Of a stretch of DNA of 21,974 nucleotides, positions 180 to 15,791 are shown one piece after another; within the stretch, counting starts at the first letter, position 1, and every line of letters begins with the position of its first letter. The notes beneath the pieces are model-generated. The model did not search any database, was not told where the DNA came from, and saw nothing but the letters and a program-made list of their open reading frames with translations. The translations under genes were made by a program, and so were the position numbers. Source of the DNA: Fidelibacterota bacterium (GTDB taxonomy: Bacteria > Fidelibacterota > Marinisomatia > Marinisomatales > S15-B10); assembly GCA_046861655.1 (NCBI GenBank), contig JBHIAI010000018.1, forward strand, positions 1-21,974. Direction: 5' to 3'.

Positions 180-1385
180 TCAAGAGGCCGGGGACATCAC
201 GCTCCCCCGCAGCTTGGTGAGGAGAGGTCTCACATTCATGCCGAATTCTTCCTCTCTATTCAGTGAGAGGGCAAGCTGGCGGGCCCTCCTTCCCACCTCT
301 ACCGCCTTCCCTTTGTGATTCATAAGATAGGTAACGAGGGGCTGCATTTCACCGATGTCATGTACTCTGAAAAAGTGGGTACCATGAACACCTTCGATAC
401 CTTCAAGGCCCTTAGATGTGGATATTAGAACTTTCCCTGCCAGCATTGCAATGATACTCTTCAATTTGATGCCTGATCCCCGTATCTGGGGATTGATGCA
501 TATAGCACCTTCCGACAGCACATCCGCATCATTCTCTACGTATCCTCTACCCTCTATGTTCTGGGCAGGAGACCCAAATCTGTCCGTGTAGCGTCCAGCC
601 AGCACCAGTCTGGCACTGCTGTCCTCCTGAACAATGGACTTCCACACACCCTGGATGAACTTGATCAGTCCGTGTCCTTTTCTAAGGTCAGCCGACCCTA
701 CATACACAACGGTACGGAGGTCTCCAATGGGCACATTCCTGTACGGATCGGGGTTCACACGCACCCCTAAGATTCCGTCACAGATTTTCCCATACCTCCT
801 TCGATACTCAGCCGAATCCCTGGAGGAAATTGCCCAAACTGCGTCCACATAGCTCAGAATGGAATACTCGAACTTTCTCAATTTCTCCAATTCCGTCTTC
901 CAGGCAAGCCGCGTGGCTATCCCCCCCTCCTTGTCAAACCCCTCAAAGATCTCTCCCCCTATGTTGTGACTTCTCAGGACAAACCGGCCAGGGGGCAGCC
1001 TCCTTTTCAGCGCTGGGAGATGGTAAGCGGCGGGAATATCTTCGAAAACTACAACCATGCCATCAGCAGGAGAGGAACGTGAGATACAGCGAACAAGTTC
1101 CTCCGTCACTTCCCTCGAAGCGTACTGCTGAATCGAAGCGGGACATGGTACAGAAAGGCTTTTCAGGAACCGCTTCCATTTCGACGCCTTTGTCACCGGT
1201 ATCTGCTTCCAGGTTACGTCTGGATAGGAATCTCTGAGTTCCCCTGGGAAGGGATCAGGGGTCACAGCAAAGTAGTTGACGTCCGAAAAGACCCCGCAGT
1301 ATTCTTTCAGCGAACTGGCTACCGCAATCCCATAGCCACGGTCCGGGCGAGGCCACGATTTTGCCACTACGAAGAACGGGCCCAC
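180..1385 (-). CDS. Glycosyltransferase, GT-B fold (GT4-like)
   Basis: 401-aa ORF with RSHN, YVGS, LVLAG and the C-terminal INPQIRGSGIKLKSIIAMLAGKVLISTSKGLEG motif typical of GT4-like enzymes. GTG start abuts the wzx stop. Confidence 0.88.
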   Translation of the reverse strand: MGPFFVVAKSWPRPDRGYGIAVASSLKEYCGVFSDVNYFAVTPDPFPGELRDSYPDVTWKQIPVTKASKWKRFLKSLSVPCPASIQQYASREVTEELVRCISRSSPADGMVVVFEDIPAAYHLPALKRRLPPGRFVLRSHNIGGEIFEGFDKEGGIATRLAWKTELEKLRKFEYSILSYVDAVWAISSRDSAEYRRRYGKICDGILGVRVNPDPYRNVPIGDLRTVVYVGSADLRKGHGLIKFIQGVWKSIVQEDSSARLVLAGRYTDRFGSPAQNIEGRGYVENDADVLSEGAICINPQIRGSGIKLKSIIAMLAGKVLISTSKGLEGIEGVHGTHFFRVHDIGEMQPLVTYLMNHKGKAVEVGRRARQLALSLNREEEFGMNVRPLLTKLRGSVMSPAS

Positions 1386-2816
1386 TTACAGGTGCTGCCT
1401 GAAAATTCTGAGTGAAAGCCTGGGACTATTCCTGACATAGATGGCCGTGAGGATCGCGGTAAGGGCAAAACACAGTCCCATCCGAAGAGTCACTGACGAC
1501 GTCAAACTGGCGGTCACACTGTACAGGCCTGCTATACCCACCACGGCGAACACAAGGTCTCTGTAAAGACTACGATGAAGACGGGGCACGTTCAAGAGGT
1601 GTCTGATGACTGCGATGCTCATCACGCATGCTGCGACGTGACCCAGAAGAAAACTCATGGATCCCGCCATAAGGGGACCGACCCCCAGAGACCTCGCGGC
1701 CGCGAACGTCAGGGCAAGAACCAGAACGGAAACAACAAAAATCAACGAATTGTATCCTCTTTCTGAAGCCGCATCAATGGGGCCCCTGAGAATTCCCACC
1801 ACGGCATAGAAGGGAATGGTCAAAAGAATCGTCCGTACCGAGCGTGCCCCGGTTTCCGAAATATCATTGAGCCAGAGCCTGAGGATTTCCGGCCCGAAAA
1901 GTGTGAGAGAAACAGCGACAATCGTTCCCAGCAACAAACCCATTTCCGTTAGTCGACCCAGGTAATGGCTTACTTCAGACTCCCGTTGTTCTCCGAGAGC
2001 CTTCGACACCCGGGGCAACAGAACGAGACCCAAAGGACCAACGACGATCAAGAAGATCCGCACCAGACTTATGCTGGAATTCAGGAAGGCCAGATCCCTG
2101 TAGGATACCTGCGATGCCACCATGACGGGAACCCCCGCCAGGAGAATGAACTGGAAAACGAAGCTCGGTACCCTCTCCGTACCGTAGGACCAAAGTCTTG
2201 CCACTTCGGCCCTTCTTATCTTTCTCGGATCCAGACCCTTATTCCTCAGCAGGTACCCCCAGCCAGTCGTCACAAGCAGCCCAACCCCCAGGACAAGGAG
2301 AGCCACATCCAACTCCATGACGAAAAAGAATACACCTATGGGCAGAAGAGCGGATCCCGTTATTTGGAAAATGTTGCCTCCAACGATGTTGAGGTGACCC
2401 CGGAACAGTCCGTAGGTCAGATTCTGCATGCAGACACCCAGCGTGAAGACGTAGATGGGCAGAGCAAGTTCCGGCCTGAATCCGGGGACCAGGTTCCTCG
2501 ATATGAGAAAAGCCAGAACGGCGGTGACCGGCAGGGTAAACGTCAGAAACGTGAAAACGGCTCCGTGTCCAAAGAACCCCCTGGGGTCTTTGGCGACGAA
2601 ATTGGGAAGGCCCACATTCATCCCGAGAAGAAGGATGCCAACCATAGCATAGCTGGTTCTTCTGATGAGAAGGTACTCACCCAGAGTTTCCATGCCGTGG
2701 ACCCTGGCCATGTACCCATTCAAAAAGAGAACACCAAGAATAATTCCCAGGGCGTTCAGGACCGTAATCGTGATGTCTTTTTCGAGGCTGAGGGTCTTTG
2801 AAAGGACTCTAAACAA
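1386..2816 (-). CDS. wzx: Polysaccharide repeat-unit flippase (Wzx/MOP superfamily)
   Basis: 476 aa with ~12-14 hydrophobic segments; AR..G.E.LG.Y, LGMNVGLPNFVA and VLLPRVS patterns typical of Wzx; polysaccharide-locus context. Confidence 0.82.
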   Translation of the reverse strand: MFRVLSKTLSLEKDITITVLNALGIILGVLFLNGYMARVHGMETLGEYLLIRRTSYAMVGILLLGMNVGLPNFVAKDPRGFFGHGAVFTFLTFTLPVTAVLAFLISRNLVPGFRPELALPIYVFTLGVCMQNLTYGLFRGHLNIVGGNIFQITGSALLPIGVFFFVMELDVALLVLGVGLLVTTGWGYLLRNKGLDPRKIRRAEVARLWSYGTERVPSFVFQFILLAGVPVMVASQVSYRDLAFLNSSISLVRIFLIVVGPLGLVLLPRVSKALGEQRESEVSHYLGRLTEMGLLLGTIVAVSLTLFGPEILRLWLNDISETGARSVRTILLTIPFYAVVGILRGPIDAASERGYNSLIFVVSVLVLALTFAAARSLGVGPLMAGSMSFLLGHVAACVMSIAVIRHLLNVPRLHRSLYRDLVFAVVGIAGLYSVTASLTSSVTLRMGLCFALTAILTAIYVRNSPRLSLRIFRQHL

Positions 2817-2871
2817 ATCTCCACCCTGCGGGGATCAGGCCCTACGTCTGCCGGCCCGGGTCATAGACGAC

Positions 2872-4362
2872 TTAGACAACACCAGATTTGGGCTTTTCGT
2901 ACCGGGTACGAAAGGACGTGATCATCCAGAAGGCGAGCACAAACAGGATGATTCCGTGGCTTATGATCAGTATCGGAAAATTCGCGCCGGCAAAGTAAAA
3001 CGAGAAGGACATGGCAAGGACCGTGACAGTTGTGACATATATGACATCCTTCAGATAATGGCAAGTTCTCAACAGGACCCAGTAGATGTAATGGGTAACC
3101 ATCCCCACCAGAAGGGACGAAACGATGATTCCCACCCACCCGAAATCAGCCCAGAAGAAGCTCATGTAGTTGGCACTGGCCAACCCCGCAGTGACTGTGC
3201 TCACGTCCAGGGTTTGAAAGAGCCAGTTGGCCACAGGAAAATGTCCCTCCGGGTGGAGCCAGGAATAAAGGTGGGAGGTTCTCCCTCCGAGAAACGAGTG
3301 ATACGTGGGAAAGATCTCGAAGTATTTTTTCAGGACCCAGGCCGGAACGTAGAATGTTCTCAGCCAGAGAAGGTACAAGACCCTGGAAAATGTGAAGGGA
3401 ACCCCCGCGGTAAACTTTATCACGATGTAGGGGAAGGCGAATACAGCCGCCATGGAAACGGCCATCAGTCTCGTGGAGATTCTCCCCCTGTTCTTCAGGA
3501 AAAAGAACAGAGCTAATGCCAGAACCAGAGCTGCTGTGTGGGCTTTGGCGATGGTCAGGGAATTATTGAAAAGGCCAAACACCAGGAACACAACAAACAG
3601 AACTCTGAACCTTCGTTCCCTCGTGATAACCGCCATGAAAAGGCTGGCGATAACACCCACTCCGTAAAGCGCTGTCCGTGCCCACGAATACAGGTAAATC
3701 TCCACGGCGGGAATGTCGAGAAGGTTGATCGACTCCAATCTGAGCCACGCCAATTTCACTTTCTCCCCCGGATTCAGAATAAGTTCAATGAGGGGAACGC
3801 TTTCCATTCGCGAAATGTGCCTACCCATAATGGCCAGGCATACAACAAGCAGAATGATCAGGAACACGTAGACCCTTTGGGAACTAACAGGTCTAACCAG
3901 GTTCTGACGACCGAGTCTGCCGACTTGATCCAGGTCAATACGGAAGAAGTAGTTCGCGAAGAGCAAACCCAGAGGGAATAGGAGGTAGAAAGAATTGACC
4001 GCGTAGAAAAACGTGTCCGCCGCTCTGGAGGGCTCATTGAGCACCACCCACACACTCGGAATAGCAAGCATGGCCGTGAATGAGACGTAAGCAACCGCAG
4101 GAAAGGAGAGAATCCGAAGTCCCGAAAGGCCGTAAATCTCTGCCCGCTCATAGATCAGAATCTCATACAGGAAAATCGCCACCGTCAGCGTGCAGGCGAG
4201 AGATCTAACGGGTTCGTCGAGAGAGAGGAAGAAAAGAAAAAGGACGGGCAAAACCACAAGGAACACGGTGTCCAGACGCCGGGTGTTTCCTGGGGTCAAC
4301 CAGCGCTCAGGCCAGAAAAACGCCAGCTTCCGTCTGCGCTGTGCTACCGCTTGTGCTTCCAT
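2872..4362 (-). CDS. wzy: Probable O-antigen/EPS polymerase (Wzy)
   Basis: 496-aa polytopic membrane protein with a large late loop and a WADFGWVG motif; lies between the co-polymerase and the flippase. Confidence 0.75.
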   Translation of the reverse strand: MEAQAVAQRRRKLAFFWPERWLTPGNTRRLDTVFLVVLPVLFLFFLSLDEPVRSLACTLTVAIFLYEILIYERAEIYGLSGLRILSFPAVAYVSFTAMLAIPSVWVVLNEPSRAADTFFYAVNSFYLLFPLGLLFANYFFRIDLDQVGRLGRQNLVRPVSSQRVYVFLIILLVVCLAIMGRHISRMESVPLIELILNPGEKVKLAWLRLESINLLDIPAVEIYLYSWARTALYGVGVIASLFMAVITRERRFRVLFVVFLVFGLFNNSLTIAKAHTAALVLALALFFFLKNRGRISTRLMAVSMAAVFAFPYIVIKFTAGVPFTFSRVLYLLWLRTFYVPAWVLKKYFEIFPTYHSFLGGRTSHLYSWLHPEGHFPVANWLFQTLDVSTVTAGLASANYMSFFWADFGWVGIIVSSLLVGMVTHYIYWVLLRTCHYLKDVIYVTTVTVLAMSFSFYFAGANFPILIISHGIILFVLAFWMITSFRTRYEKPKSGVV

Positions 4363-4465: not shown

Positions 4466-5833
4466 TCACCTAACAGAAGAATCGAGCTCCTTCCACCGCT
4501 CCCAGAATAAGATACCGACCACCGAAAAAACAGAGGACAGCACAAACGATATGATGACCATGAGAGTCCGTTGCGGCCTGTACTTCTTCTCGGGTTCCTT
4601 AGCCCAATCAAGGACCTGAATTGTGGGGGTGTCCCTCGCCTCCTGAATTCTCGCCTGTTCATACTGCTCCACGAGGAATGCATACAACTGGTTTTGCACC
4701 TCAAGGTCCCGTTCCAACCGGACAAGCTGCATGCTCAGATCGGGGACTTCAGACAGGATCGGAAATGGACCTTTTGGACCGTCCGCATCTGCGGGCAGCC
4801 TGTCTTCTATGGAAGCCAGTTTTTCCTTCGCCGATGCAATTTCCAATTCCAACCGCTTCAGCTCCGGGCTGTCGGGATTCCTGAGAGCCTCCAGGGCTTC
4901 GTAGGTCACCTCATTCGTCAGGATCATGGCATTCAACTCAGCCGCCATCTTGATGGTGGCCTCGGTCTGAACGGGAAGGGAAATAGTGCCGTAACGCTCC
5001 TGGAAACTCCGAAGTTTTTCTTCCGCCCTGTTGAGATCCCTTCGATTCCGTTCCAGTCTATCTTCAACAAAAGTCCGCTGAAGCCGGGCACTGGTGGAGT
5101 TCAGTTTCTTGTTAACCAGGTCCACTTCCCTCACCAGGCTGTTTACCATGCCAGTGCACAACTTTCGGGCGTTGCTGTCCGACCGATCACCAGGAAACCA
5201 CTGGGTCTTAGCATCCATATCAATGCGTATGGTACCCTCCTCTTGCAGACCAAAATGAAGGTCACTGTCCAGGGCGGCAAGGGCTTCCTCCATGGTTTCT
5301 ACGTCGTATACCCGCATAAGATCGAATTCTTCGACGATTTTTTCCCTCACCGTCCGGCTCGCGAGTATGGCCAGGAGACGATTCGTATCCGTCGTATTCC
5401 TTCCGATATCCAATCCAGAAAGAGGAAGGCCTTGAAGGGCTTGGAACAGTCCGGTCGGCTCCTCCGATTCAGAGGGCATGATCACCGCAGTCGCCCTGAA
5501 TGTCTTCGGCATGATGAGACTGATGACCGCCACGATAACACAGGTGAAAAAGACCAGGGCACCAATTCTTACTTTATACTTTAGGAGGTGGCGCACATAG
5601 GCCAGGACCGGTACGTCACCTCTTGCCTTAACAAGAGGCTCCTCCGTCAGCAGGCGGCCCGTGTCAGACACCAGCCCGTACCGTTTCAAATCGGCAATCC
5701 GGTTCCGCAGCGTTTTCTCGTTCATCCCGAACTCGGCTGCGATTCTTCCTCTTTCAGCCTTATTGACAACAATCTCCGGGTACCGCCTGATCAGTTCAAG
5801 GATGGTTTTTTCGTGCTCGGTTAGACTGGGCAT
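4466..5833 (-). CDS. Polysaccharide co-polymerase/chain-length determinant (Wzz/GumC family) with N-terminal HTH-like domain
   Basis: TM1 followed by PKTFRATAVI, a periplasmic coiled coil (LERNRRDLNRAEEKLRSFQE), EQARIQEARDTPTIQVLD.A..PEKK.RP.R, then TM2. No kinase domain. The first ~56 aa look like a wHTH. Confidence 0.88.
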   Translation of the reverse strand: MPSLTEHEKTILELIRRYPEIVVNKAERGRIAAEFGMNEKTLRNRIADLKRYGLVSDTGRLLTEEPLVKARGDVPVLAYVRHLLKYKVRIGALVFFTCVIVAVISLIMPKTFRATAVIMPSESEEPTGLFQALQGLPLSGLDIGRNTTDTNRLLAILASRTVREKIVEEFDLMRVYDVETMEEALAALDSDLHFGLQEEGTIRIDMDAKTQWFPGDRSDSNARKLCTGMVNSLVREVDLVNKKLNSTSARLQRTFVEDRLERNRRDLNRAEEKLRSFQERYGTISLPVQTEATIKMAAELNAMILTNEVTYEALEALRNPDSPELKRLELEIASAKEKLASIEDRLPADADGPKGPFPILSEVPDLSMQLVRLERDLEVQNQLYAFLVEQYEQARIQEARDTPTIQVLDWAKEPEKKYRPQRTLMVIISFVLSSVFSVVGILFWERWKELDSSVR

Positions 5834-5837
5834 GAGC

Positions 5838-6856
5838 CTACTTTATGGCAGCCAAATAGATCAGATAAAAGGTAGACACCAGGGTGGACAGGGCCTCAAT
5901 AACACTGGTGTCCCCAAAAAATCGACTCTGAAGGTTTTCGGGGACGTATATGGTATCCCCCGGCCGGGCATAGTTATCAAACCGATATCGATCTTCTTGC
6001 TGGAACGGAAGACGTCTACTTTGCTCCCACTTCCCGTATCCAGAACACCCCCGGCCATGCCAATATAGTCGCTGATCGAATACCCCGGAAAATACCGGAA
6101 CGCCCCTGGATACTTCACGAATCCCGTCACGAAAACGGCATTCTTATTGTAGGTAATGAATTCTCCCGCCTCCTGGGAATACCCCGGAAGAAAAGGGACT
6201 TCAATCCGGTCGTCTTCCTGAAAGGTAGGATTCTGGGGAATATCCCCATTCATGAGGAATCGCTTCAGCGATACCGTTTCGGTCCTGTCCCCGCCGTGGC
6301 GGAACACCTCTATGTGTTCTTCGTCGGCGTACCGGTGGAGTCCACCTGCAGCTTCCACAACCGCCGTCAATCGGTCCACCGGCGTCGCCTCCACAAACCC
6401 CGGCTCCTGAACCGCCCCCACCACCAGAATCTGGAATCTCCTCAAACGCGCCAGGGTCACGTCCACCACGGAGTTCCGGTAGGCCCTCCCCTGTACGTAC
6501 TCCCTGATCACCTCGGCGGCTTCGGAAACGGCCATCCCCGCCACCGTTATGATCCCCACCGTTGGAATCAAGATGTCACCCGCAGGGTTTACCTTCACGC
6601 TGAAGGTTAGACTTTCGGTGGCAATGATATTGATACCCACGATGTCTCCCGGCCCCAGGATGTACGAATCGGGATCAATAGGCCTTTCTATAGGGATGAT
6701 CTCCAGAATCTCTTCGGGCTTCACCTCCTCAATGACCGGCTCCTTGAACTCCGTCTCCTCTTCGCCAAAAGGACGAAACCGGGCGGAGGTCTGGGCCCAC
6801 GATAGGGTCAGGGAAGCGAGCAGGATTCCAATAAACAAGTTGACTGGTTTCTTCAT
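5838..6856 (-). CDS. Polysaccharide export protein (OPX; Poly_export + SLBB domains), frameshifted near the 3' end
   Basis: Y.LGPGD, V...G.I.IP.VG and two V.G.V..PG SLBB repeats. Likely start is ATG 6856 (GGAG 8 nt upstream; signal peptide MKKPVNLFIGILLASLTLSWAQ). The unshifted frame stops at 5861, but the conserved tail RPGDTIYVPE...LIYLAAIK* is in the -1 frame and ends at TAG 5838. Confidence 0.85.
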
Positions 6857-6897
6857 GGACATGACTCCAAAAACGAAAGTGTCATGAGGACACTCCA

Positions 6898-7908
6898 CTA
6901 CACCTCAAGGGGATACTGATTGCGGTAATACTCTAGGAACTCGCCCGACTTGATCCGGCGCCACCACGACTCATTCTCCCGGTACCACCCCACGGTCTTC
7001 TCCAGGGCCTCCTCAAAATCATGAGCAGGACTCCAACCCAGGGCCTGCAGCTTGGAGCAGTCCAGGGCATACCTCCGGTCATGGCCCTTTCGGTCCTTTA
7101 CGTGCCGGATAAGATCTTCGGACTTTCCCACGTAGGAGAGAATCAGGCGGGTGATCTCAATGTTTTCCTTCTCATTGCCTCCGCCGATATTGTATACATC
7201 GCCCCTCTGGCCCTTCTCAAGTAGAAAATGGAGGGCCGAACAGTGATCCCCCACGTACAGCCAGTCCCGAACGTTCCGGCCATCCCCGTACAGCGGAAGA
7301 GGGCGGTCCTCCAGGGCGTTGGTGATAAACAGCGGAATCAGTTTCTCCGGGTACTGGTAGGGCCCAAAATTGTTGCTCGCCCGGACAATGATTACCGGCA
7401 GACGGTAGGTAACATAATAGGAATAAGCGAGCCTGTCCCCCCCGGCCTTGCTGGCTGAATAAGGACTGCTGGGCATCAGTGAATCCGTTTCCCGGAACTT
7501 CCCTTCCCGAATGCTTCCGTACACCTCGTCCGTGCTTACCTGGACGAAGAGGTCCACCCCATGTCTTCTGGACGCCTCCAGAAGCACGAACACCCCAAAC
7601 ACATCGGTTTGAATGAAATTGTCGGGTTGACCGATGGACCGGTCCACATGGCTCTCGGCGGCAAAGTTCACCACGACATCCGGATGAGTGTCCGCAAAGA
7701 TCTTGTCCACCAATGCTCGATCGCAGATGTCACCCCGTACAAAATGATACCCGGGATGGTCTTCCAACCCGGAGAGGTTTTCAAGATTTCCTGCGTAGGT
7801 GAGCTTATCCAGGTTCACGATTCGATCCGAGCCCTCCGTCTCGAGGAGATACCGAACGAAATTGCTCCCTATGAACCCACACCCGCCTGTGATGAGATAG
7901 GTGGTCAC
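6898..7908 (-). CDS. rfbB: dTDP-glucose 4,6-dehydratase
   Basis: TGGCGFIGSNF, DKLTYAGN, NFAAESHVDRSI, STDEVYG, PYSASKA, YGDG.NVRDWLYV, DR.GHDRRYA. Start moved to GTG 7908, which overlaps the upstream TGA (GTGA). Confidence 0.96.
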   Translation of the reverse strand: MTTYLITGGCGFIGSNFVRYLLETEGSDRIVNLDKLTYAGNLENLSGLEDHPGYHFVRGDICDRALVDKIFADTHPDVVVNFAAESHVDRSIGQPDNFIQTDVFGVFVLLEASRRHGVDLFVQVSTDEVYGSIREGKFRETDSLMPSSPYSASKAGGDRLAYSYYVTYRLPVIIVRASNNFGPYQYPEKLIPLFITNALEDRPLPLYGDGRNVRDWLYVGDHCSALHFLLEKGQRGDVYNIGGGNEKENIEITRLILSYVGKSEDLIRHVKDRKGHDRRYALDCSKLQALGWSPAHDFEEALEKTVGWYRENESWWRRIKSGEFLEYYRNQYPLEV

Positions 7909-8390
7909 TCCACTCCCGCCCAGTCGAATCCTATGGTGGAATCGTTCCACGGGATCCGCTCTTCATCGGGGTTGTCACGGTCATAACTGCGGGTGCTGTG
8001 GTAAAACAGCAGCACCGGCTCTTCACTGACCACCTTGTAGCCGTGGGCCACGCCAGAAGGAATAAGAATCACCTTGTAATCGTCTTTTCCTGCGGTAATG
8101 GCCTGGGTGAGCCCAAAAGTGGGAGACCCTTTCCTCAAATCGTGAAGAACCACCACGGCTTTCCCCGTGGCTACGAACCAGAGGTCATCCTGCTTTCTGT
8201 GCCAGTGAAAGGCCTTGATGGTCCCTTCGTAGGCCACGGTGAAAGTGGATTGTCCAAAGTGTGACATAAGCCCGTCATCCTCACGAACCACCTCCATCAG
8301 AAACCCAGGTCTGGCCGGAGAATCCTCCAGGTCCGGAAGGTCCGAATGGAGGGTGAGCTTCTTGATGACAACCCCGTCAATGCCGCTCAT
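7905..8390 (-). CDS. rfbC: dTDP-4-dehydrorhamnose 3,5-epimerase family cupin (RmlC/SpsL-like)
   Basis: IKAFHWH..QDDLW, HDLR.GSPTFG, IP.GVAHGY and DE.RIPW.D..IGFDW motifs; coupled to ugd and rfbB. Confidence 0.85.
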   Translation of the reverse strand: MSGIDGVVIKKLTLHSDLPDLEDSPARPGFLMEVVREDDGLMSHFGQSTFTVAYEGTIKAFHWHRKQDDLWFVATGKAVVVLHDLRKGSPTFGLTQAITAGKDDYKVILIPSGVAHGYKVVSEEPVLLFYHSTRSYDRDNPDEERIPWNDSTIGFDWAGVE

Positions 8391-9703
8391 CCGCTGTTCC
8401 CTCTGCCCATACTTTCGAACCTGAAATTCAGTCGCTTCAACTCAGAAGGATTCAATATGTTTCGGGCGTCCACCATGGCTCTTTGCTTCACCAGACCGGC
8501 CACCGCCTCCAGATCCATGCCCCGGAATTCATGCCATTCGGTCATCACCACGATGGCTTCCGCACCCGTCACCGCTTCATCCAGACTCTCGCAGTATTCG
8601 ACCTGAGGAAACAGGGCCGCCATGTTGTCCATGGCTTCCGGATCGAAAGCCCTGACCCTTCCCCCCGAGTCTAACACGTGTTGAATGACCGGAATGGCGG
8701 GCGACTGGCGAACATCGTCGGTGTTGGACTTGAACGCCAGACCCAGGACGGCTATGGTCTTCCCTTCGATGACATCATCGAGGACACGCTCCAGCTTCGC
8801 AATCACTCGCTGCCGTTGATGCTCATTGGCCCTGACAGCGGCCTTGATGACACCCAGCTCCACCCCTCGCTCTTCCCCCTGATGAACGAAGGCCAGCGTA
8901 TCCTTGGGAAAACACGATCCCCCAAACCCCGGACCTGGATGCAGGAACTTGGGACTGATACGACCGTCAAGGCCCATGCCTCGTGCCACAACATGAACAT
9001 CGGCCCCCGTCGCATCGCAGAGATTGGCCATCTCGTTGATAAACGAGATCTTCGTCGCCAGAAAGGCGTTGGAAGCATACTTGATGGTTTCGGCCGTCAC
9101 TATGTCGGTAATCACCATGGGCGTTTCATTGATAAAGAGAGGCCGGTATACCTCCCTCAAGATTCCCAGCGCCCGGTCGGAATCACTCCCAATGACCACA
9201 CGGTTGGGAATCAGGAAGTCCCTGACTGCAGCCCCCTCCCGGAGAAATTCCGGATTGGAAACGATATCGAAATCGTGATCCCCAGCCGCATGCTCACGAA
9301 TCATGCTTCTCACCAGCTCACCGGTCCCGATGGGAACCGTGCTCTTGGTGCAGATAACCTTGTATCCGTTCAGATTCCTCCCAATGGTCCTGGAAACCTC
9401 CTTCACCGCGGACAGATCTGCCTTCCCGTCCTTCCCTTCCGGAGTCCACACCGCAATAAAGATCACCTCCGAGCTCCTCACGGCGTTACCCACATCCGTG
9501 GTAAACCTCAGCCTTTCTGCCTCAACATTTCTTGAGACCAGCTCAGCCAGCCCGGGCTCAAAAAACGGAATTTCACCATTCTGGAGCTGACCGATTCTTT
9601 CTCCGTTTACGTCGGAGCAAATGACCTCGTTGCCGAAATCTGAAAGACCAGCGCCACTCACGAGGCCCACGTAGCCCGTGCCGATGATTGCGATTTCTTT
9701 CAT
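8387..9703 (-). CDS. ugd: UDP-glucose/GDP-mannose 6-dehydrogenase
   Basis: GTGYVG Rossmann motif, KSTVP.GT, SNPEFLREG, KYASNAFLA.KISFINE, catalytic GFGGSCFPKD, GLAFK.NTDD.R.SP. Confidence 0.96.
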   Translation of the reverse strand: MKEIAIIGTGYVGLVSGAGLSDFGNEVICSDVNGERIGQLQNGEIPFFEPGLAELVSRNVEAERLRFTTDVGNAVRSSEVIFIAVWTPEGKDGKADLSAVKEVSRTIGRNLNGYKVICTKSTVPIGTGELVRSMIREHAAGDHDFDIVSNPEFLREGAAVRDFLIPNRVVIGSDSDRALGILREVYRPLFINETPMVITDIVTAETIKYASNAFLATKISFINEMANLCDATGADVHVVARGMGLDGRISPKFLHPGPGFGGSCFPKDTLAFVHQGEERGVELGVIKAAVRANEHQRQRVIAKLERVLDDVIEGKTIAVLGLAFKSNTDDVRQSPAIPVIQHVLDSGGRVRAFDPEAMDNMAALFPQVEYCESLDEAVTGAEAIVVMTEWHEFRGMDLEAVAGLVKQRAMVDARNILNPSELKRLNFRFESMGRGNSG

Positions 9704-9729
9704 ACCTTATGCACTACGATTGGACCTGA

Positions 9730-9758
9730 AAACTACCATCCTGCAAAGGGAATGTCAA
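9730..9758 (-). promoter_or_regulatory. Sigma70-type promoter of the polysaccharide operon
   Basis: Minus strand: perfect TTGACA (9758-9753), 17-nt spacer, extended -10 TGG-TAGTTT (9735-9730), about 27 nt upstream of the ugd ATG. Confidence 0.75.
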
Positions 9759-9764
9759 ACACTT

Positions 9765-9799
9765 AGGAGTGCAGAATTCCAACAAAACCCTGCACTCCT
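9765..9799 (-). terminator. Inverted repeat/hairpin after the VWA gene (possible terminator or operator)
   Basis: Perfect 10-bp arms AGGAGTGCAG (9765-9774) and CTGCACTCCT (9790-9799). On the minus-strand RNA the stem extends via G-U pairs. It starts 8 nt after the stop at 9808 but has no strong U tract. Confidence 0.5.
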
Positions 9800-9807
9800 G
9801 GGGACCC

Positions 9808-11991
9808 CTATTGCAGGCCGAAAAGCCTGCGAACAGTCCACTCGGCCGTGAGGAACACGATCAGGACAATTCCCAGAGGAAGCCAGTGACTGACATGGAA
9901 GGTCCTGGCGGTCCTCGTCACCCGGGAGGAAAAGGTTACGTATTTCCCCACTTCCAACCTCCGGGACCAGGGCAGATACACGCCGCCGGTGGCTTCAGAC
10001 AGATCCTTCAGGAGTTTTTCGTTCAGGAACACCCGGTTCAATTCTATCTGACTCTCTTCCACCCTGAATGTTCCTGTATGCCGCCCGAGGACAATTCCCT
10101 GGGCCTCGGCTTCAATGACATAGTTGTACGTCCCAGGTCTGGCCGCGAAGAGGGTGGCCTCCCACCCTTTGTCAGGAGAAAACGCCAGAGGGTACGAGCG
10201 GATGTCACCAGTTTCCCGGTCTTCCAGGAAGAGGGTAACCTCCAAATCTTCCGATGGGAATTGCCCCAGGTCCAGTACAGACCCGGAAACATAGATCGTT
10301 TCCCCCTGCTGGTACGTGGACTTGTTCAGCCGAACGTAGACCCCGTCATCCCCTCCCTTCTTCGCCAGCCAGCTGAGGGCCCTTTCCCACCATCGTTGAG
10401 TGAAATCTGACGTCTCCGTAAACTGGGTTTTGAAGTGAAGTTGCCAGAGATCGGCGGAGGTAAACGTCACCACCCGGAGGACCTTCCCCGGTGCCTGGGG
10501 GAGGGCCACCGTTCCAGCCGTAAACAGCGGAATTCTCCCGGGGCCCTCCAGGTATGCCTGGACGGAAACTCCTTCGGATACGGGTGCAGCGAGTAGGGTC
10601 GGTCTCAAGGGAGGAAGGGAACCCGGGGAAGGACTTTCTCTAGAGAGAACCCCGGCCCCGGAAAAAATAGCATGGCTGAACCTCTCCTCTGAAAATCCTA
10701 CAGGATAGGGTCGATCCGGATCCACCTCTGCTTCCAGCGGTTCAAGCCCAAGCAGAGGCATGAATACTCGGAAATCCCCTCCCGAAACATCGGGGCCCGC
10801 AACGAAGGCCAGGGCAGCGGGGAATCGCTCCAGTTTTCGGGCCAGATCATTGATCCACTGCCCCGGAATGGAATTCTTTCCAAGATTGTCCAGGACGATC
10901 ACGTCGTAGTTTGTCCCCCAGAACGATACCAGGGGAGGAGACCACCGGTTCCCCAACTTGACGAAGTGATCGATCTCAAACCCGTCCGATCTCCGAAGAA
11001 CCCGCTTTAGAAACATCGTATTCGGCGATGGCGTTCCCGTCAGCAGCGCCACCCGGAATCGATCCTTGAGGGTCGTAATCACGAAGGTGGCACGGTTGTT
11101 CAGAATGTTGATTTCGTCCTTGAGGGAGGATACCTGTACTCGGTACTCCTCTGTCCCGGGATTCTCCAGACGGAACTGGAACCTCACCGTCCTCACCGAC
11201 CCCCGTCCCTCCAGCATGACTACCTTCGAACCCAGCAGTTTCTTCCCCCGGTTGAGGGTTACGTGAACCCTCTGCCTGAACTGTCCCACCGACGAAATGA
11301 ACACCGTGGCCGTGGGCGCATCTCCGCGAACACCCACCATCGGGACCTCCACTTTTTCCACATGAATATCGACCATGGGGGTGAGTTCCCCTATCCCTAT
11401 GGTGTGAACGGGGACGTCCAAATCCTTCGCCAGGTCCCGGGGATCGCCCCCCATCGTTATCTGTCCGTCCGTTACCACCACGATCCCCGCCAGGTACTCC
11501 TGACCGGGGACGTCCTCAAAATCCTTCACCACCCGGGAAAGATGGGTGGTCGGTTCAGAGAAATCCAGATGAAAGTCCTCCTCGTCAATCCTCTGAATCT
11601 CCGATCCGAAGGAATACAGGTCCACCCGGGGGGCGTCCGCTGAATGGTTTCTGGCAGCATCCCGAAGCAGGGAGGCTATTTCCCGGTACCCATTCGTAAG
11701 CGAGCTGCTGGAAATGGTCTGGTGATAAGCCGCGCTGACAGAATTGTCAAGAAACACTTTCACAACGGGTTTTCTCAACCGCACGGACGTCCACGAAAGG
11801 ACCACGTCAGAAAGGAGCACAACCGAAAGGAGAATGATCCCGGCCCGGAGCAGGGCGGGAATGAGATACCGCGTACGCTCCCGGCGTCTGTGAATCCCGT
11901 AGCTCCAGATGGCCAGGACCAGCCCCAGCAGGAAAACCGGCGGAAGGATCCAGACGGGAATCCCGTCGCCGGCAGAAAAAAAACTGGTCAT
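9808..11991 (-). CDS. Membrane-anchored VWA-domain protein with Ig-like and GATase-like (DUF1355-type) regions
   Basis: Two N-terminal TMs; MIDAS-like FLDNSVS, VVVTDG and VHTIGIG; an E....NN Ig-like segment; a YDVIVLDN segment; C-terminal L..LSEATGG and a TM ending LTAEWTVRR..GL, typical of this family. Confidence 0.75.
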   Translation of the reverse strand: MTSFFSAGDGIPVWILPPVFLLGLVLAIWSYGIHRRRERTRYLIPALLRAGIILLSVVLLSDVVLSWTSVRLRKPVVKVFLDNSVSAAYHQTISSSSLTNGYREIASLLRDAARNHSADAPRVDLYSFGSEIQRIDEEDFHLDFSEPTTHLSRVVKDFEDVPGQEYLAGIVVVTDGQITMGGDPRDLAKDLDVPVHTIGIGELTPMVDIHVEKVEVPMVGVRGDAPTATVFISSVGQFRQRVHVTLNRGKKLLGSKVVMLEGRGSVRTVRFQFRLENPGTEEYRVQVSSLKDEINILNNRATFVITTLKDRFRVALLTGTPSPNTMFLKRVLRRSDGFEIDHFVKLGNRWSPPLVSFWGTNYDVIVLDNLGKNSIPGQWINDLARKLERFPAALAFVAGPDVSGGDFRVFMPLLGLEPLEAEVDPDRPYPVGFSEERFSHAIFSGAGVLSRESPSPGSLPPLRPTLLAAPVSEGVSVQAYLEGPGRIPLFTAGTVALPQAPGKVLRVVTFTSADLWQLHFKTQFTETSDFTQRWWERALSWLAKKGGDDGVYVRLNKSTYQQGETIYVSGSVLDLGQFPSEDLEVTLFLEDRETGDIRSYPLAFSPDKGWEATLFAARPGTYNYVIEAEAQGIVLGRHTGTFRVEESQIELNRVFLNEKLLKDLSEATGGVYLPWSRRLEVGKYVTFSSRVTRTARTFHVSHWLPLGIVLIVFLTAEWTVRRLFGLQ

Positions 11992-13976: not shown

Positions 13977-15791
13977 CTAAGACGAGGGATCCGGTTGGTC
14001 CTGGTCATCGGTCTCGGTCCCGGCGGATTCGTCAGCGGATGCCTCGGCCGTTTCCACCAGATTCATCACCACCTTCTTGTCTTCCGCCTCTACCCTGACC
14101 ACCTCTCCCGTGATCTGCGTTCCGGGCTCGAACTTCTCCAGGATCTCCTGTCTGTTCTTCCGGGGAAGGCTTCGAGCGGGAATGATTCCCTCCACATCCA
14201 TCTCCAGCTGGAGAATGATCCCCTTGTCCAAAGAGCGGATTACCTCTCCCGAAAACGTTTTCCCGACTTCGAAATGCTGGGTGATGGCGGGCCAGGGATC
14301 CTCAGTGGTCTGCTTCAGTCCCAGGGCAATCCGCCGGCTGGTGGGGGAAACGTCTAGAATCCGTACCTCCACTTCCTCCCCCTTCTGTACCACTTCCCTG
14401 GGGTGCCGGATAACCTTGGTCCAGGACATGTCAGAAATATGAATCAGGCCGTCAATACCTTCTTCCATTTCCACGAAAGCACCGAATTGAGTCAGATTTC
14501 TTACCGTTCCCTTGTGAACGGAATCCACAGGATACCGGACGTCTACCCCTTCCCAGGGATCTGGCTGAAGCTGTTTGAATCCGAGGGCGATCTTCCTGTC
14601 TTCCTCGTCCACGCTGAGAACCTGGGCCTCAACTGTGTCGCCCAGCTCCACCACCTCTGACGGATGCCTGATGTTTCGCGTCCATGACATCTCGGATACG
14701 TGGACCAGTCCTTCTACCCCTTTTTCGATTTCCACAAAGGCACCGTAATTGGTCATGCTGACCACTTTCCCCTCCACCTTCTCGCCTACCTGATACTTGT
14801 CGGAGATGTTTTCCCACGGATGAGGTGTGAGCTGTTTAAGACCCAGGGAGATGCGCTGCCTCTCCTGATCCACATCGATAATCTTTACGTTGAGCTCATC
14901 GCCGATATTCACCATATCGGATGGATGATTGACCCTCCCCCAGGAAAGATCTGTAATGTGAAGGAGGCCGTCCACTCCTCCAAGATCTATGAAGACGCCG
15001 AAATCGGTGATATTCTTCACCCGGCCCTCCACAATCTGACCTACCTCAATCTCCTTGAACAGGGCTTTTCTCTGTTCCCGGAGGGTATCTTCAAGGAGGG
15101 CCTTTCTGGACAGGACGATGTTCTTTCTCAATCTGTTGAGCTTAACGATGCGAAACTCCATTTCCTGACCCAGGTACTGGTCGAAGTCCTGAACAGGCCG
15201 AACGTCAATCTGGGAGCCCGGTAAGAAAGCCTGTATGCCGTCCAGATCCACCACCATTCCCCCTTTGATCCGGCGGACAATTTTTCCGTCCACCGTCTCC
15301 TTGTTTTCATAGACCTCCACAATCTTGTTCCACCGTTTCATCCAGTCTGCTTTTTCCTTCGAAAGGATGGTTTGTCCACTGGAGTCCTCCATCCGCTCCA
15401 GGTAAACATCCAGAACATCACCTATGGATGGCGTTTCTTCATCCATGAAGTCCGAACGGGGGATGATTCCCTCAGACTTGAATCCGATGTCCATGATGAT
15501 TTCTTTTTCGTTCTGACCGATAACCCGGCCCGTGACAATCTGGTGCTGACCGATATCAGAAAGGGTCTCCAAATACCTCGAGAGTTGATCGGGACCCACT
15601 TTTTCGTCTATGTCTTCGGTTTCCTCAAGGTCGCCATAGGTCACCCGTTTGACGTTTTCGAACAACTGGGGATCCAGGTAGTCCGTCGTTTCCGGACCGG
15701 CCAGGCTGTTGTCCTGTTCTGTGTCGCCGGAGGAACTCGCCTGGGCTTCCCCGTTAAGATCTTCGGTACCGACCTTCTCTTCCTCTTCCAT
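13977..15791 (-). CDS. rpsA: 30S ribosomal protein S1
   Basis: Six S1 repeats (DIGFKSEG, AFLPGSQID, DGLLHITDLSW, EGLVHVSEMSW, DGLIHISDMSW); directly downstream of cmk. Confidence 0.97.
   Translation of the reverse strand: MEEEEKVGTEDLNGEAQASSSGDTEQDNSLAGPETTDYLDPQLFENVKRVTYGDLEETEDIDEKVGPDQLSRYLETLSDIGQHQIVTGRVIGQNEKEIIMDIGFKSEGIIPRSDFMDEETPSIGDVLDVYLERMEDSSGQTILSKEKADWMKRWNKIVEVYENKETVDGKIVRRIKGGMVVDLDGIQAFLPGSQIDVRPVQDFDQYLGQEMEFRIVKLNRLRKNIVLSRKALLEDTLREQRKALFKEIEVGQIVEGRVKNITDFGVFIDLGGVDGLLHITDLSWGRVNHPSDMVNIGDELNVKIIDVDQERQRISLGLKQLTPHPWENISDKYQVGEKVEGKVVSMTNYGAFVEIEKGVEGLVHVSEMSWTRNIRHPSEVVELGDTVEAQVLSVDEEDRKIALGFKQLQPDPWEGVDVRYPVDSVHKGTVRNLTQFGAFVEMEEGIDGLIHISDMSWTKVIRHPREVVQKGEEVEVRILDVSPTSRRIALGLKQTTEDPWPAITQHFEVGKTFSGEVIRSLDKGIILQLEMDVEGIIPARSLPRKNRQEILEKFEPGTQITGEVVRVEAEDKKVVMNLVETAEASADESAGTETDDQDQPDPSS

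Follow-up and report, generated by a model that had tools for sequence, protein, structure and literature searches.

We identify a kinase-less Wzz/GumC-type polysaccharide co-polymerase (PCP) with a helix-turn-helix (HTH) domain ahead of its first membrane helix, encoded in a contig of a Fidelibacterota bacterium (hereafter, the window, that is, the whole 21,974-nucleotide stretch of DNA analysed). The conserved HTH-co-polymerase fusion is real, is absent from the literature searched, and provides a testable protein-site pair. Judging from sequence comparisons, the HTH head, carried on a tether, would bind the palindrome GCCCGGGC in the upstream genes, such that the export ring would fix the locus that encodes it to the membrane, a reading to which we assign a probability of about 0.45; binding of the head to GCCCGGGC as such appears probable.

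A helix-turn-helix head on a Wzz/GumC-type co-polymerase

The open reading frame (4466-5833, minus strand) encodes 455 amino acids and starts with MPSLTEHEKTILELIRRYPE, as originally read. Pfam families Wzz (residues 78-169) and GNVR (368-442) are matched above cut-off, and the full-length model contains two transmembrane (TM) helices, TM1 (87-107) and TM2 (422-454), with a coiled-coil periplasmic body between them; its best Foldseek matches are Wzc (E 1.6e-13), WzzE, and KpsE. The proline motif preceding TM2 is conserved among 73 sequences, with P420 invariant and R422 nearly so. This layout, together with the Wzx/Wzy-type locus, is that of the PCPs. The protein ends after TM2, which bears out the claim that the BY-kinase is absent, and the BY-kinase model TIGR01007 has no match above cut-off in the window's genome (93% complete). 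Hence, the protein lacks the C-terminal BY-kinase of PCP-2a (Wzc), and in place of the short tails that are all PCP-1 (Wzz) proteins have, it carries a 56-residue folded head and a linker. Where an Lrp/AsnC protein has its RAM domain, Wzz follows the head instead. As modelled, a DNA-binding-type domain and a TM helix in one chain correspond to the layout of a transmembrane transcription regulator. PCP proteins form inner-membrane rings and have a cytoplasmic N-terminus. By analogy with this family, the window's protein is expected to form such rings and to control chain length or export.

Residues 1-60 match 13 HTH-type Pfam families, every one below its cut-off. The best of these, HrcA_DNA-bdg, scores 19.6 bits (E 7e-4) against a cut-off of 21, and weak matches to this HrcA DNA-binding domain (PF03444) occur in 9 of 26 members. 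AlphaFold, run with a 26-sequence alignment, predicts helices at 6-17, 19-22, 25-34, and 39-51 (pLDDT 90.7) and no strand. The HTH fold that was originally predicted is thus present in the model, but the label 'winged' has to be dropped: no beta-wing is predicted, the sequence after G53 is unconserved, and neither model has a strand of at least three residues. The head is therefore best described, as modelled, as a three-helix HTH with a short extra helix. In VIA, the nearest shape is the Lrp/AsnC protein PH0061 (Z 7.6, rmsd 1.8, 53 residues), with many ties, and the top Lrp/AsnC rows reach at most Z 7.6, against the tool's threshold of 8, whereas the sequence of helix 3 is nearest to Csa3 (E 8.5e-5) and GerE (E 0.0018). 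A Foldseek search with the head alone matched nothing at E 0.001, and the ESM Atlas hits of the head, all below 0.9, are at best leads.

The HTH runs in frame into the Wzz body, as had been noted, with no methionine between residues 37 and 108. In the full-length model the linker is disordered at residues 66-72, and the distance from helix 3 to TM1 ranges from 25 to 51 residues among 72 orthologues. Contigs of three sequencing runs, X1 (4657-5734), X2 (5489-5920), and X3 (5387-5784), which come from one study and are possibly the source samples, span the HTH-Wzz junction without a gap. These contigs, together with the recurrence of the fusion in relatives, rule out an assembly artefact, and a translation start downstream of the head is ruled out because orthologues begin at the head.

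Table 1. Positions in the window of the HTH-wzz gene, its parts, and its surroundings
Feature	Position	Strand	Remarks
Variable downstream block: wzy-like multi-pass protein (no Pfam match), wzx-like flippase, GT4 glycosyltransferase	180..4362	-	
Co-polymerase body: interfacial helix 76-85, TM1, periplasmic coiled-coil, GNVR region, TM2; no kinase	4466..5608	-	
Linker, residues 57-75; variable, low-confidence	5609..5665	-	pLDDT <50 at 66-72
Three-helix HTH head, residues 1-56	5666..5833	-	Pfam, AlphaFold, structure comparison
Helix 3 of the head, residues 39-51	5681-5719	-	
wza, outer-membrane export protein	5838..6898	-	stop 5838-5840, 4 bases before HTH start
rfbC-like epimerase/cupin and rfbB-like dehydratase, between ugd and wza	6898..8390	-	
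ugd, by sequence of the UDP-glucose dehydrogenase type, opening the polysaccharide block, with palindrome	8387..9703	-	
Candidate binding site, palindrome GCCCGGGC in ugd codons E-P-G-L	9550..9557		
Intergenic region	9704..9807	-	9-bp hairpin 9766-9798; by eye TTGACA-N17-TAGTTT 9730-9758

The usual gene order is rpsA, ybbR, tsaD, a 700-aa membrane protein, ugd, rfbC, rfbB, wza, and HTH-wzz, followed by variable wzy, wzx, and transferase genes, the last of which encodes the priming glycosyltransferase; in the window's genome this block continues in contig C115. In a second arrangement, wza comes first, back to back with serS. The wza gene of the window has a frameshift near 5978, where one base is missing in a T run. 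Because the X1 and X3 contigs carry the extra base, the frameshift is put down to the assembly, with the true end of the gene at 5838.

Several further observations concern these loci. The 727-aa membrane protein of the window (9808-11991) has no Pfam match above cut-off; its gene type is conserved in the tsaD-ugd interval of most of the order's loci, is missing there in family f15, and carries the palindrome in 5 loci. A perfect 9-bp inverted repeat (9766-9798) lies immediately ahead of the promoter-like TTGACA-N17-TAGTTT between the 727-aa gene and ugd, and was not seen in the other loci; the promoter and terminator scan returned 0 promoters and 0 terminators and did not call this by-eye motif. 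In f15, cmk and rpsA form one fused frame (L165:239-2824; L166:103-2676); in the window, they abut at 15791/15792. Many loci contain sulfotransferase genes (e.g. L131:1990-2967), so that a sulfated polymer is probable in several lineages. The priming transferase gene is often preceded by a divergent Wzi-like gene, and the ugd-like match of locus L240 (G066:C12:18869-20197) contains an internal TAG stop.

Spread and evolution of the head

Named relatives belong to Marinimicrobia / Fidelibacterota, marine bacteria that are uncultured. Within the phylum, the head was found in 72 of 301 genomes, 70 of 145 inside the order (Marinimicrobia) and 2 of 156 outside it, whereas Wzz itself is present in 230 of the 301; among 61 relatives, 44 have the head, with a single match each except for G052. 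The HTH-Wzz architecture for which a domain search had been proposed is thus a recurrent one. Nearly all of the best 120 among 900 clusters from the alignment search are Wzz/GNVR-bearing or short fragments, and a full HMM scan gave 117 hits, 85 of them at E 1e-10 or better, beyond which the matches fall off sharply into unrelated repeats. The genome collection gave 103 confirmed places, and the 80 best of these comprise 74 Wzz fusions, one place cut by a contig end, and five archaeal ones; accordingly, the head is in frame with Wzz in 74 of 75 bacterial-type loci, the remaining one stopping at the contig edge. The fused gene lies behind wza and is almost always single copy. A few short contigs labelled Scalindua or Proteobacteria show the same wza-wzz order and are probably misbinned. 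Stand-alone soluble heads were rejected: the short HMM hits were read as contig-end fragments or chimeric calls, with the exception of the archaeal TM form (the search of the annotated protein set covered lengths of at least 103 residues). A phage origin of this head was likewise discarded, no relative being present among viral contigs.

Eighty heads align without an indel and share 12 invariant residues, six of them in helix 3 (E39, K40, T41, R43, N44, and R45), in line with the conservation of the recognition helix (EKTxRNR) that had been proposed as a check; since the loci were chosen by patterns that contain helix 3, its invariance is inflated and partly built in, and L037, with N at H7, was filtered out of this alignment. 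Separately, the full HMM scan contained one Wzz with a decayed head (P0282), the only one with a degenerate helix 3, no longer EKTLRNR, which is a candidate for a natural loss of function on the basis of its sequence.

The head is better conserved than the protein that carries it. Among 72 proteins, median identity is 60% for the head and 28% for the Wzz body (44% in the best body window), and in 43 loci the identity of the head is level with that of TsaD and Ugd. Divergence of the head tracks that of TsaD (rank correlation 0.44) more than that of its own Wzz body (0.06). In bacterial heads, helix 3 has pN 0.11 and pS 0.88; conservation of the HTH-coding stretch at the DNA level was ruled out because synonymous sites are close to saturation. 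The same head is found on many unrelated Wzz bodies and is kept despite a swap of the body, as in L108 and L082 (head 92%, body 29%). A quick tree of 71 Wzz bodies requires the head to have been gained or lost 9 times, with strong branches forcing 7 of these changes. The locus thus exchanges wzz alleles, and newcomers acquire or retain the head.

Other heads occupy the same position. An XRE domain above the Pfam cut-off is present on Wzz in G017, G022, G201, and G218, and 10 matches to a phage-CI-type head were found in 9 genomes out of 301, each of them belonging to the order; all 10 continue in frame into Wzz (HMM or BLAST for nine, inspection for L226). Both types replace an absent window-type head or belong to an additional wza-wzz pair. 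The XRE heads are of the HTH_3 type, and these Wzz genes lie directly behind wza (L168:4458-5777 in G017, L170:3789-4949 in G022, L204, and L205). The window's genome encodes, on contig C20, a second Wzz with a phage-CI-type N-terminal HTH (L212:1252-1848), which ends at the contig end and has a HEPN/nucleotidyltransferase-like gene pair (named from sequence) upstream. Family f15 has a plain, headless Wzz at the same locus position, so the head is dispensable for export. The presence of three unrelated DNA-binding folds at one position is the best indirect sign that DNA binding may be what is selected.

Outside bacteria, six Poseidoniales genomes encode, at a fixed locus, a protein of 101 amino acids made up of the same head, a polar linker, and a single TM helix at the C-terminus. 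Of 251 Poseidoniales genomes, 80 match the query and only 5 match its head; among 20 loci fetched, the other 15 encode a headless peptide, ~33 residues long, that shares the TM helix. The archaeal heads group together in a single branch beside the window-family heads, with weak resolution over 52 columns, have diverged about as much as their hosts, and are scattered on the neighbouring-gene tree (6 changes among 20 rows). Their helix 3 is kept under purifying selection (pN 0.016, pS 0.65). The gene for the 33-residue single-TM peptide (L039:5771-6073; L111-L130) is conserved, probably unannotated, and has a TATA-like box of its own; alleles with and without the HTH head occur in close sister genomes. 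Neither Wzz nor a protein of MreB size was matched in the five archaeal hosts tested, whose only MreB-family matches are of 630 aa and 74-80 bits (read as DnaK-sized). Selection can thus act on head and membrane anchor even where there is no Wzz, and this speaks for DNA rather than a bacterial protein as the ligand.

A candidate binding site and the proposed role of the head

The original prediction placed the target of the head in the promoter region at 9704-9807. Among 29 dereplicated ugd upstream regions, no order-wide dyad, palindromic or direct, was found, and CCCGGG is present in 1 of 37 such regions; the candidate site lies instead inside ugd. When amino acids were fixed and codons resampled according to per-locus usage, ugd, rfb, and wza contained 55 copies of GCCCGGGC against 2.7 expected, a count from kin loci rather than independent lineages. 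The 700-aa gene has 5 copies (0.9 expected from synonymous resampling), the housekeeping genes rpsA, ybbR, tsaD, and cmk have 0 (0.8 expected), the downstream genes 0 (0.4 expected), and the wzz genes 0. Among 15 control palindromes, the highest, the unrelated CGGCGCCG, reached 12 against 1.7 in the same genes.

Of 51 loci, 42 have the site at most 5 kb upstream of the head, and none of 56 has it in the first 5 kb downstream. In the upstream genes it falls for the most part at synonymous codons, mostly 150-750 bases into ugd or inside wza. Recurring places in ugd are codons near 49 (E-P-G-L), 103, and 240, the E-P-G-L codons alone holding GCCCGGGC in 20 of 44 loci (0.27 expected); others are wza codons near 17 and 65, the end of rfbB, the 700-aa gene, and the serS-wza gap. 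Of the 9 loci with no GCCCGGGC in this upstream 5-kb range, two (L036 and L042) carry it at ~5.4 kb, three (L041, L043, and L051) have the one-base variant ACCCGGGC at the E-P-G-L codons, three related ones (L049, L053, and L066) have no CCCGGG in 20 kb, and the last is L048. Copies of GCCCGGGC are absent from all 10 ugd genes examined from genomes without a window-type head, which represent few lineages (three f15, three XRE-headed, four from other orders); in one control locus (L234), the palindrome is present, but outside ugd. Genome-wide, four head-bearing genomes have 4, 5, 6, and 17 copies and the headless G053 has 0; in G048, none of 4 sites lies on the contig of its locus. The window's genome (56% GC) has 118 copies, so that GCCCGGGC alone gives little specificity there. 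Exact GCCCGGGC is absent from 9 archaeal loci checked, and the archaeal hosts have no genome-wide excess (9-14 copies against 7-18 in sisters); the bacterial palindrome is not evidently used in archaea.

The original suggestion that the locus is tethered to the membrane fits the finding of a candidate cognate site in the same locus. Mechanistically, the co-polymerase ring would display several heads together on flexible tethers. As the 52-residue head has no dimerisation domain, a two-fold palindrome could be gripped through neighbouring ring subunits, and two heads gripping GCCCGGGC would keep the operon's 5' portion where the machine is assembled. The selected outcome would be an anchor, whereby the locus, its mRNA, and the nascent membrane enzymes are retained at that site; a transcriptional side effect, by roadblock or loop, would be likely but secondary.

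The same palindrome might instead serve a membrane-bound transcription regulator whose selected output is control of operon transcription, through feedback from idle or free co-polymerase and possibly through cleavage of the linker. Such a regulator would be in keeping with the transcription-factor folds of all three head types and with sites occupying the leading genes of the block and none lying downstream; in serS-type loci, one copy of GCCCGGGC is intergenic before wza, as seen in seven such loci, and a second site follows ~385 bases further on, and in G021 a copy is inside a second sugar-transferase gene. Transmembrane transcription regulators are common (PMC10269533). We nevertheless consider this alternative, the main rival, less likely than the anchor, given that the distance from the site to the likely promoter varies by hundreds of bases and most sites are coding, that ugd upstream regions have no conserved dyad and the linkers of orthologues no conserved cleavage motif, and that the PCP body would be the sole possible sensor domain. 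Anchoring is preferred over regulation because the site floats among at least six positions, with no fixed promoter distance.

The head could also act as a sequence-independent tether to the nucleoid, where any HTH would serve and which would replace the BY-kinase/ParB route between export, chromosome, and cell cycle. This would account for the interchange of three unrelated heads on Wzz, for an archaeal form reduced to head and membrane anchor, with no Wzz match and no excess of sites, and for the window's genome having no BY-kinase above cut-off; RocS is reported to bind DNA regardless of sequence through its N-terminal HTH and to contact CpsD (10.1101/359943). It leaves unexplained, however, a palindrome that is restricted to the locus and absent without the head, which argues for specificity; moreover, the base-reading positions are invariant and the net charge of the head is modest (-1 to +7). 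We regard such a tether as improbable.

Still less credence can be given to binding of a protein by the head, with the palindrome read by something else, a soluble regulator or a methyltransferase for instance. The HTH of RodZ binds MreB, and the order of HTH, linker, and TM helix resembles that of RodZ; MreB is present in the window's genome, and one of the many tied VIA matches is a protein-binding wHTH (2xvc_A, Z 6.0). However, helix 3 is kept in the five archaeal hosts without an MreB-sized match, three different heads would require three interfaces, and the palindrome tracks the window-type head rather than the whole order.

A structured leader RNA of ~120 bases precedes the priming glycosyltransferase gene (L131:6654-6795 in contig C115 of the window's genome, L070:19520-19632, and ~25 further loci), directly 3' of a TTGACA-N17-TAAATT-type promoter. 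Its parts are AGGAG..TATCG, a long stem with compensatory changes, and a GTGA(T/C)CCAGC hairpin, which in the window's family is terminator-like, with a T run; a variant precedes wza in serS-type loci, and some copies contain a short open frame and a ribosome-binding motif. No Rfam match at gathering score was found in 7 sources, and none that was meaningful at E 10; RNAalifold gave no consensus structure on leader alignment A4. The pairing was set by hand from one member, and the leader model (R2) matches in 10 of 150 genomes, all within the order. Binding of the head to this leader, with control of attenuation, is a very remote prospect, even though the leader lies in the same locus of many head-bearing genomes, including the window's (C115:6657), was not found in G053 or G028, and has changes on both sides in 5 of 21 pairs (11 sequences). 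It was not found before the priming transferase gene in the head-bearing G029, G060, and G008, its range is poorly known since the model misses the copy of the window's own genome, and HTH recognition helices usually read DNA.

Returning to the tether between ring and locus, we tentatively extend it to a self-addressing machine: the ring might read GCCCGGGC as a postcode in the synonymous codons of its own operon and pull that DNA to the membrane, the order might have re-installed heads on incoming Wzz proteins many times from three HTH families, and an archaeal lineage might have borrowed the head as a minimal link between membrane and DNA, present in some sister species and absent from others.

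Significance and comparison with known systems

To our knowledge, polysaccharide co-polymerases are not known to touch DNA. If the head binds a site in its own operon, this would be a dedicated, sequence-specific placement of one locus at the machine encoded there. Transertion and gene positioning are long-debated ideas that normally come without a single protein-site pair to test; here, the pair consists of 56 residues and 8 bases and could be moved into E. coli. Three unrelated heads on Wzz in one order suggest a general, overlooked design. No description of an HTH-Wzz fusion was found in the literature searched, with bioRxiv supplements and most subscription papers beyond reach. Wzz and GNVR do not occur in the main text of the survey of transmembrane transcription regulators (PMC10269533), nor do Wzz, GNVR, or Marinimicrobia in nine of its supplement files, and the accessible part of PMC12419801 describes HTH fusions to VanZ lipid enzymes in exopolysaccharide contexts, and none to Wzz.

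The PCPs Wzc (PCP-2a), WzzE and FepE (PCP-1), and KpsE (PCP-3) resemble the window's protein in the layout of TM helices and coiled-coil, in the Wzz and GNVR domains, and in a gene adjoining wza in a Wzx/Wzy block. The window's protein differs from them in having no C-terminal BY-kinase and a conserved HTH on its cytoplasmic N-terminus; in those Wzz/Wzc proteins from outside the order that were compared, the N-terminal tails are short. ToxR, TcpP, and CadC share the succession of cytoplasmic DNA-binding-type domain, linker, TM helix, and periplasmic domain, but here a structural subunit of an export machine takes the place of the dedicated periplasmic sensor, the head is a three-helix HTH rather than an OmpR-type wHTH, and the candidate sites are intragenic. 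The HTHs of Lrp/AsnC, GerE/LuxR, Csa3, HrcA, and LexA resemble the modelled head in fold, at VIA scores under the threshold for Lrp/AsnC, and in the sequence of helix 3, whereas the head described here has no effector or dimerisation domain and no wing, has an extra short helix (19-22), and stands sharply apart as a family, with 85 representatives reaching at least E 1e-10.

The sites of parS/ParB, matS/MatP, and SlmA are short palindromes that place DNA independently of promoters and often lie in coding sequence. They serve the whole chromosome, whereas GCCCGGGC clusters in one biosynthetic operon and its candidate reader is part of the machine encoded there. Finally, RocS of Streptococcus pneumoniae likewise combines an N-terminal HTH with a membrane anchor and is functionally linked to a capsule co-polymerase/kinase system (10.1101/359943), but it is a separate protein with an amphipathic anchor and no sequence preference that acts via CpsD and ParB. 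In the system described here, by contrast, the HTH is fused to the co-polymerase, the kinase is absent, and a specific palindrome tracks the head.
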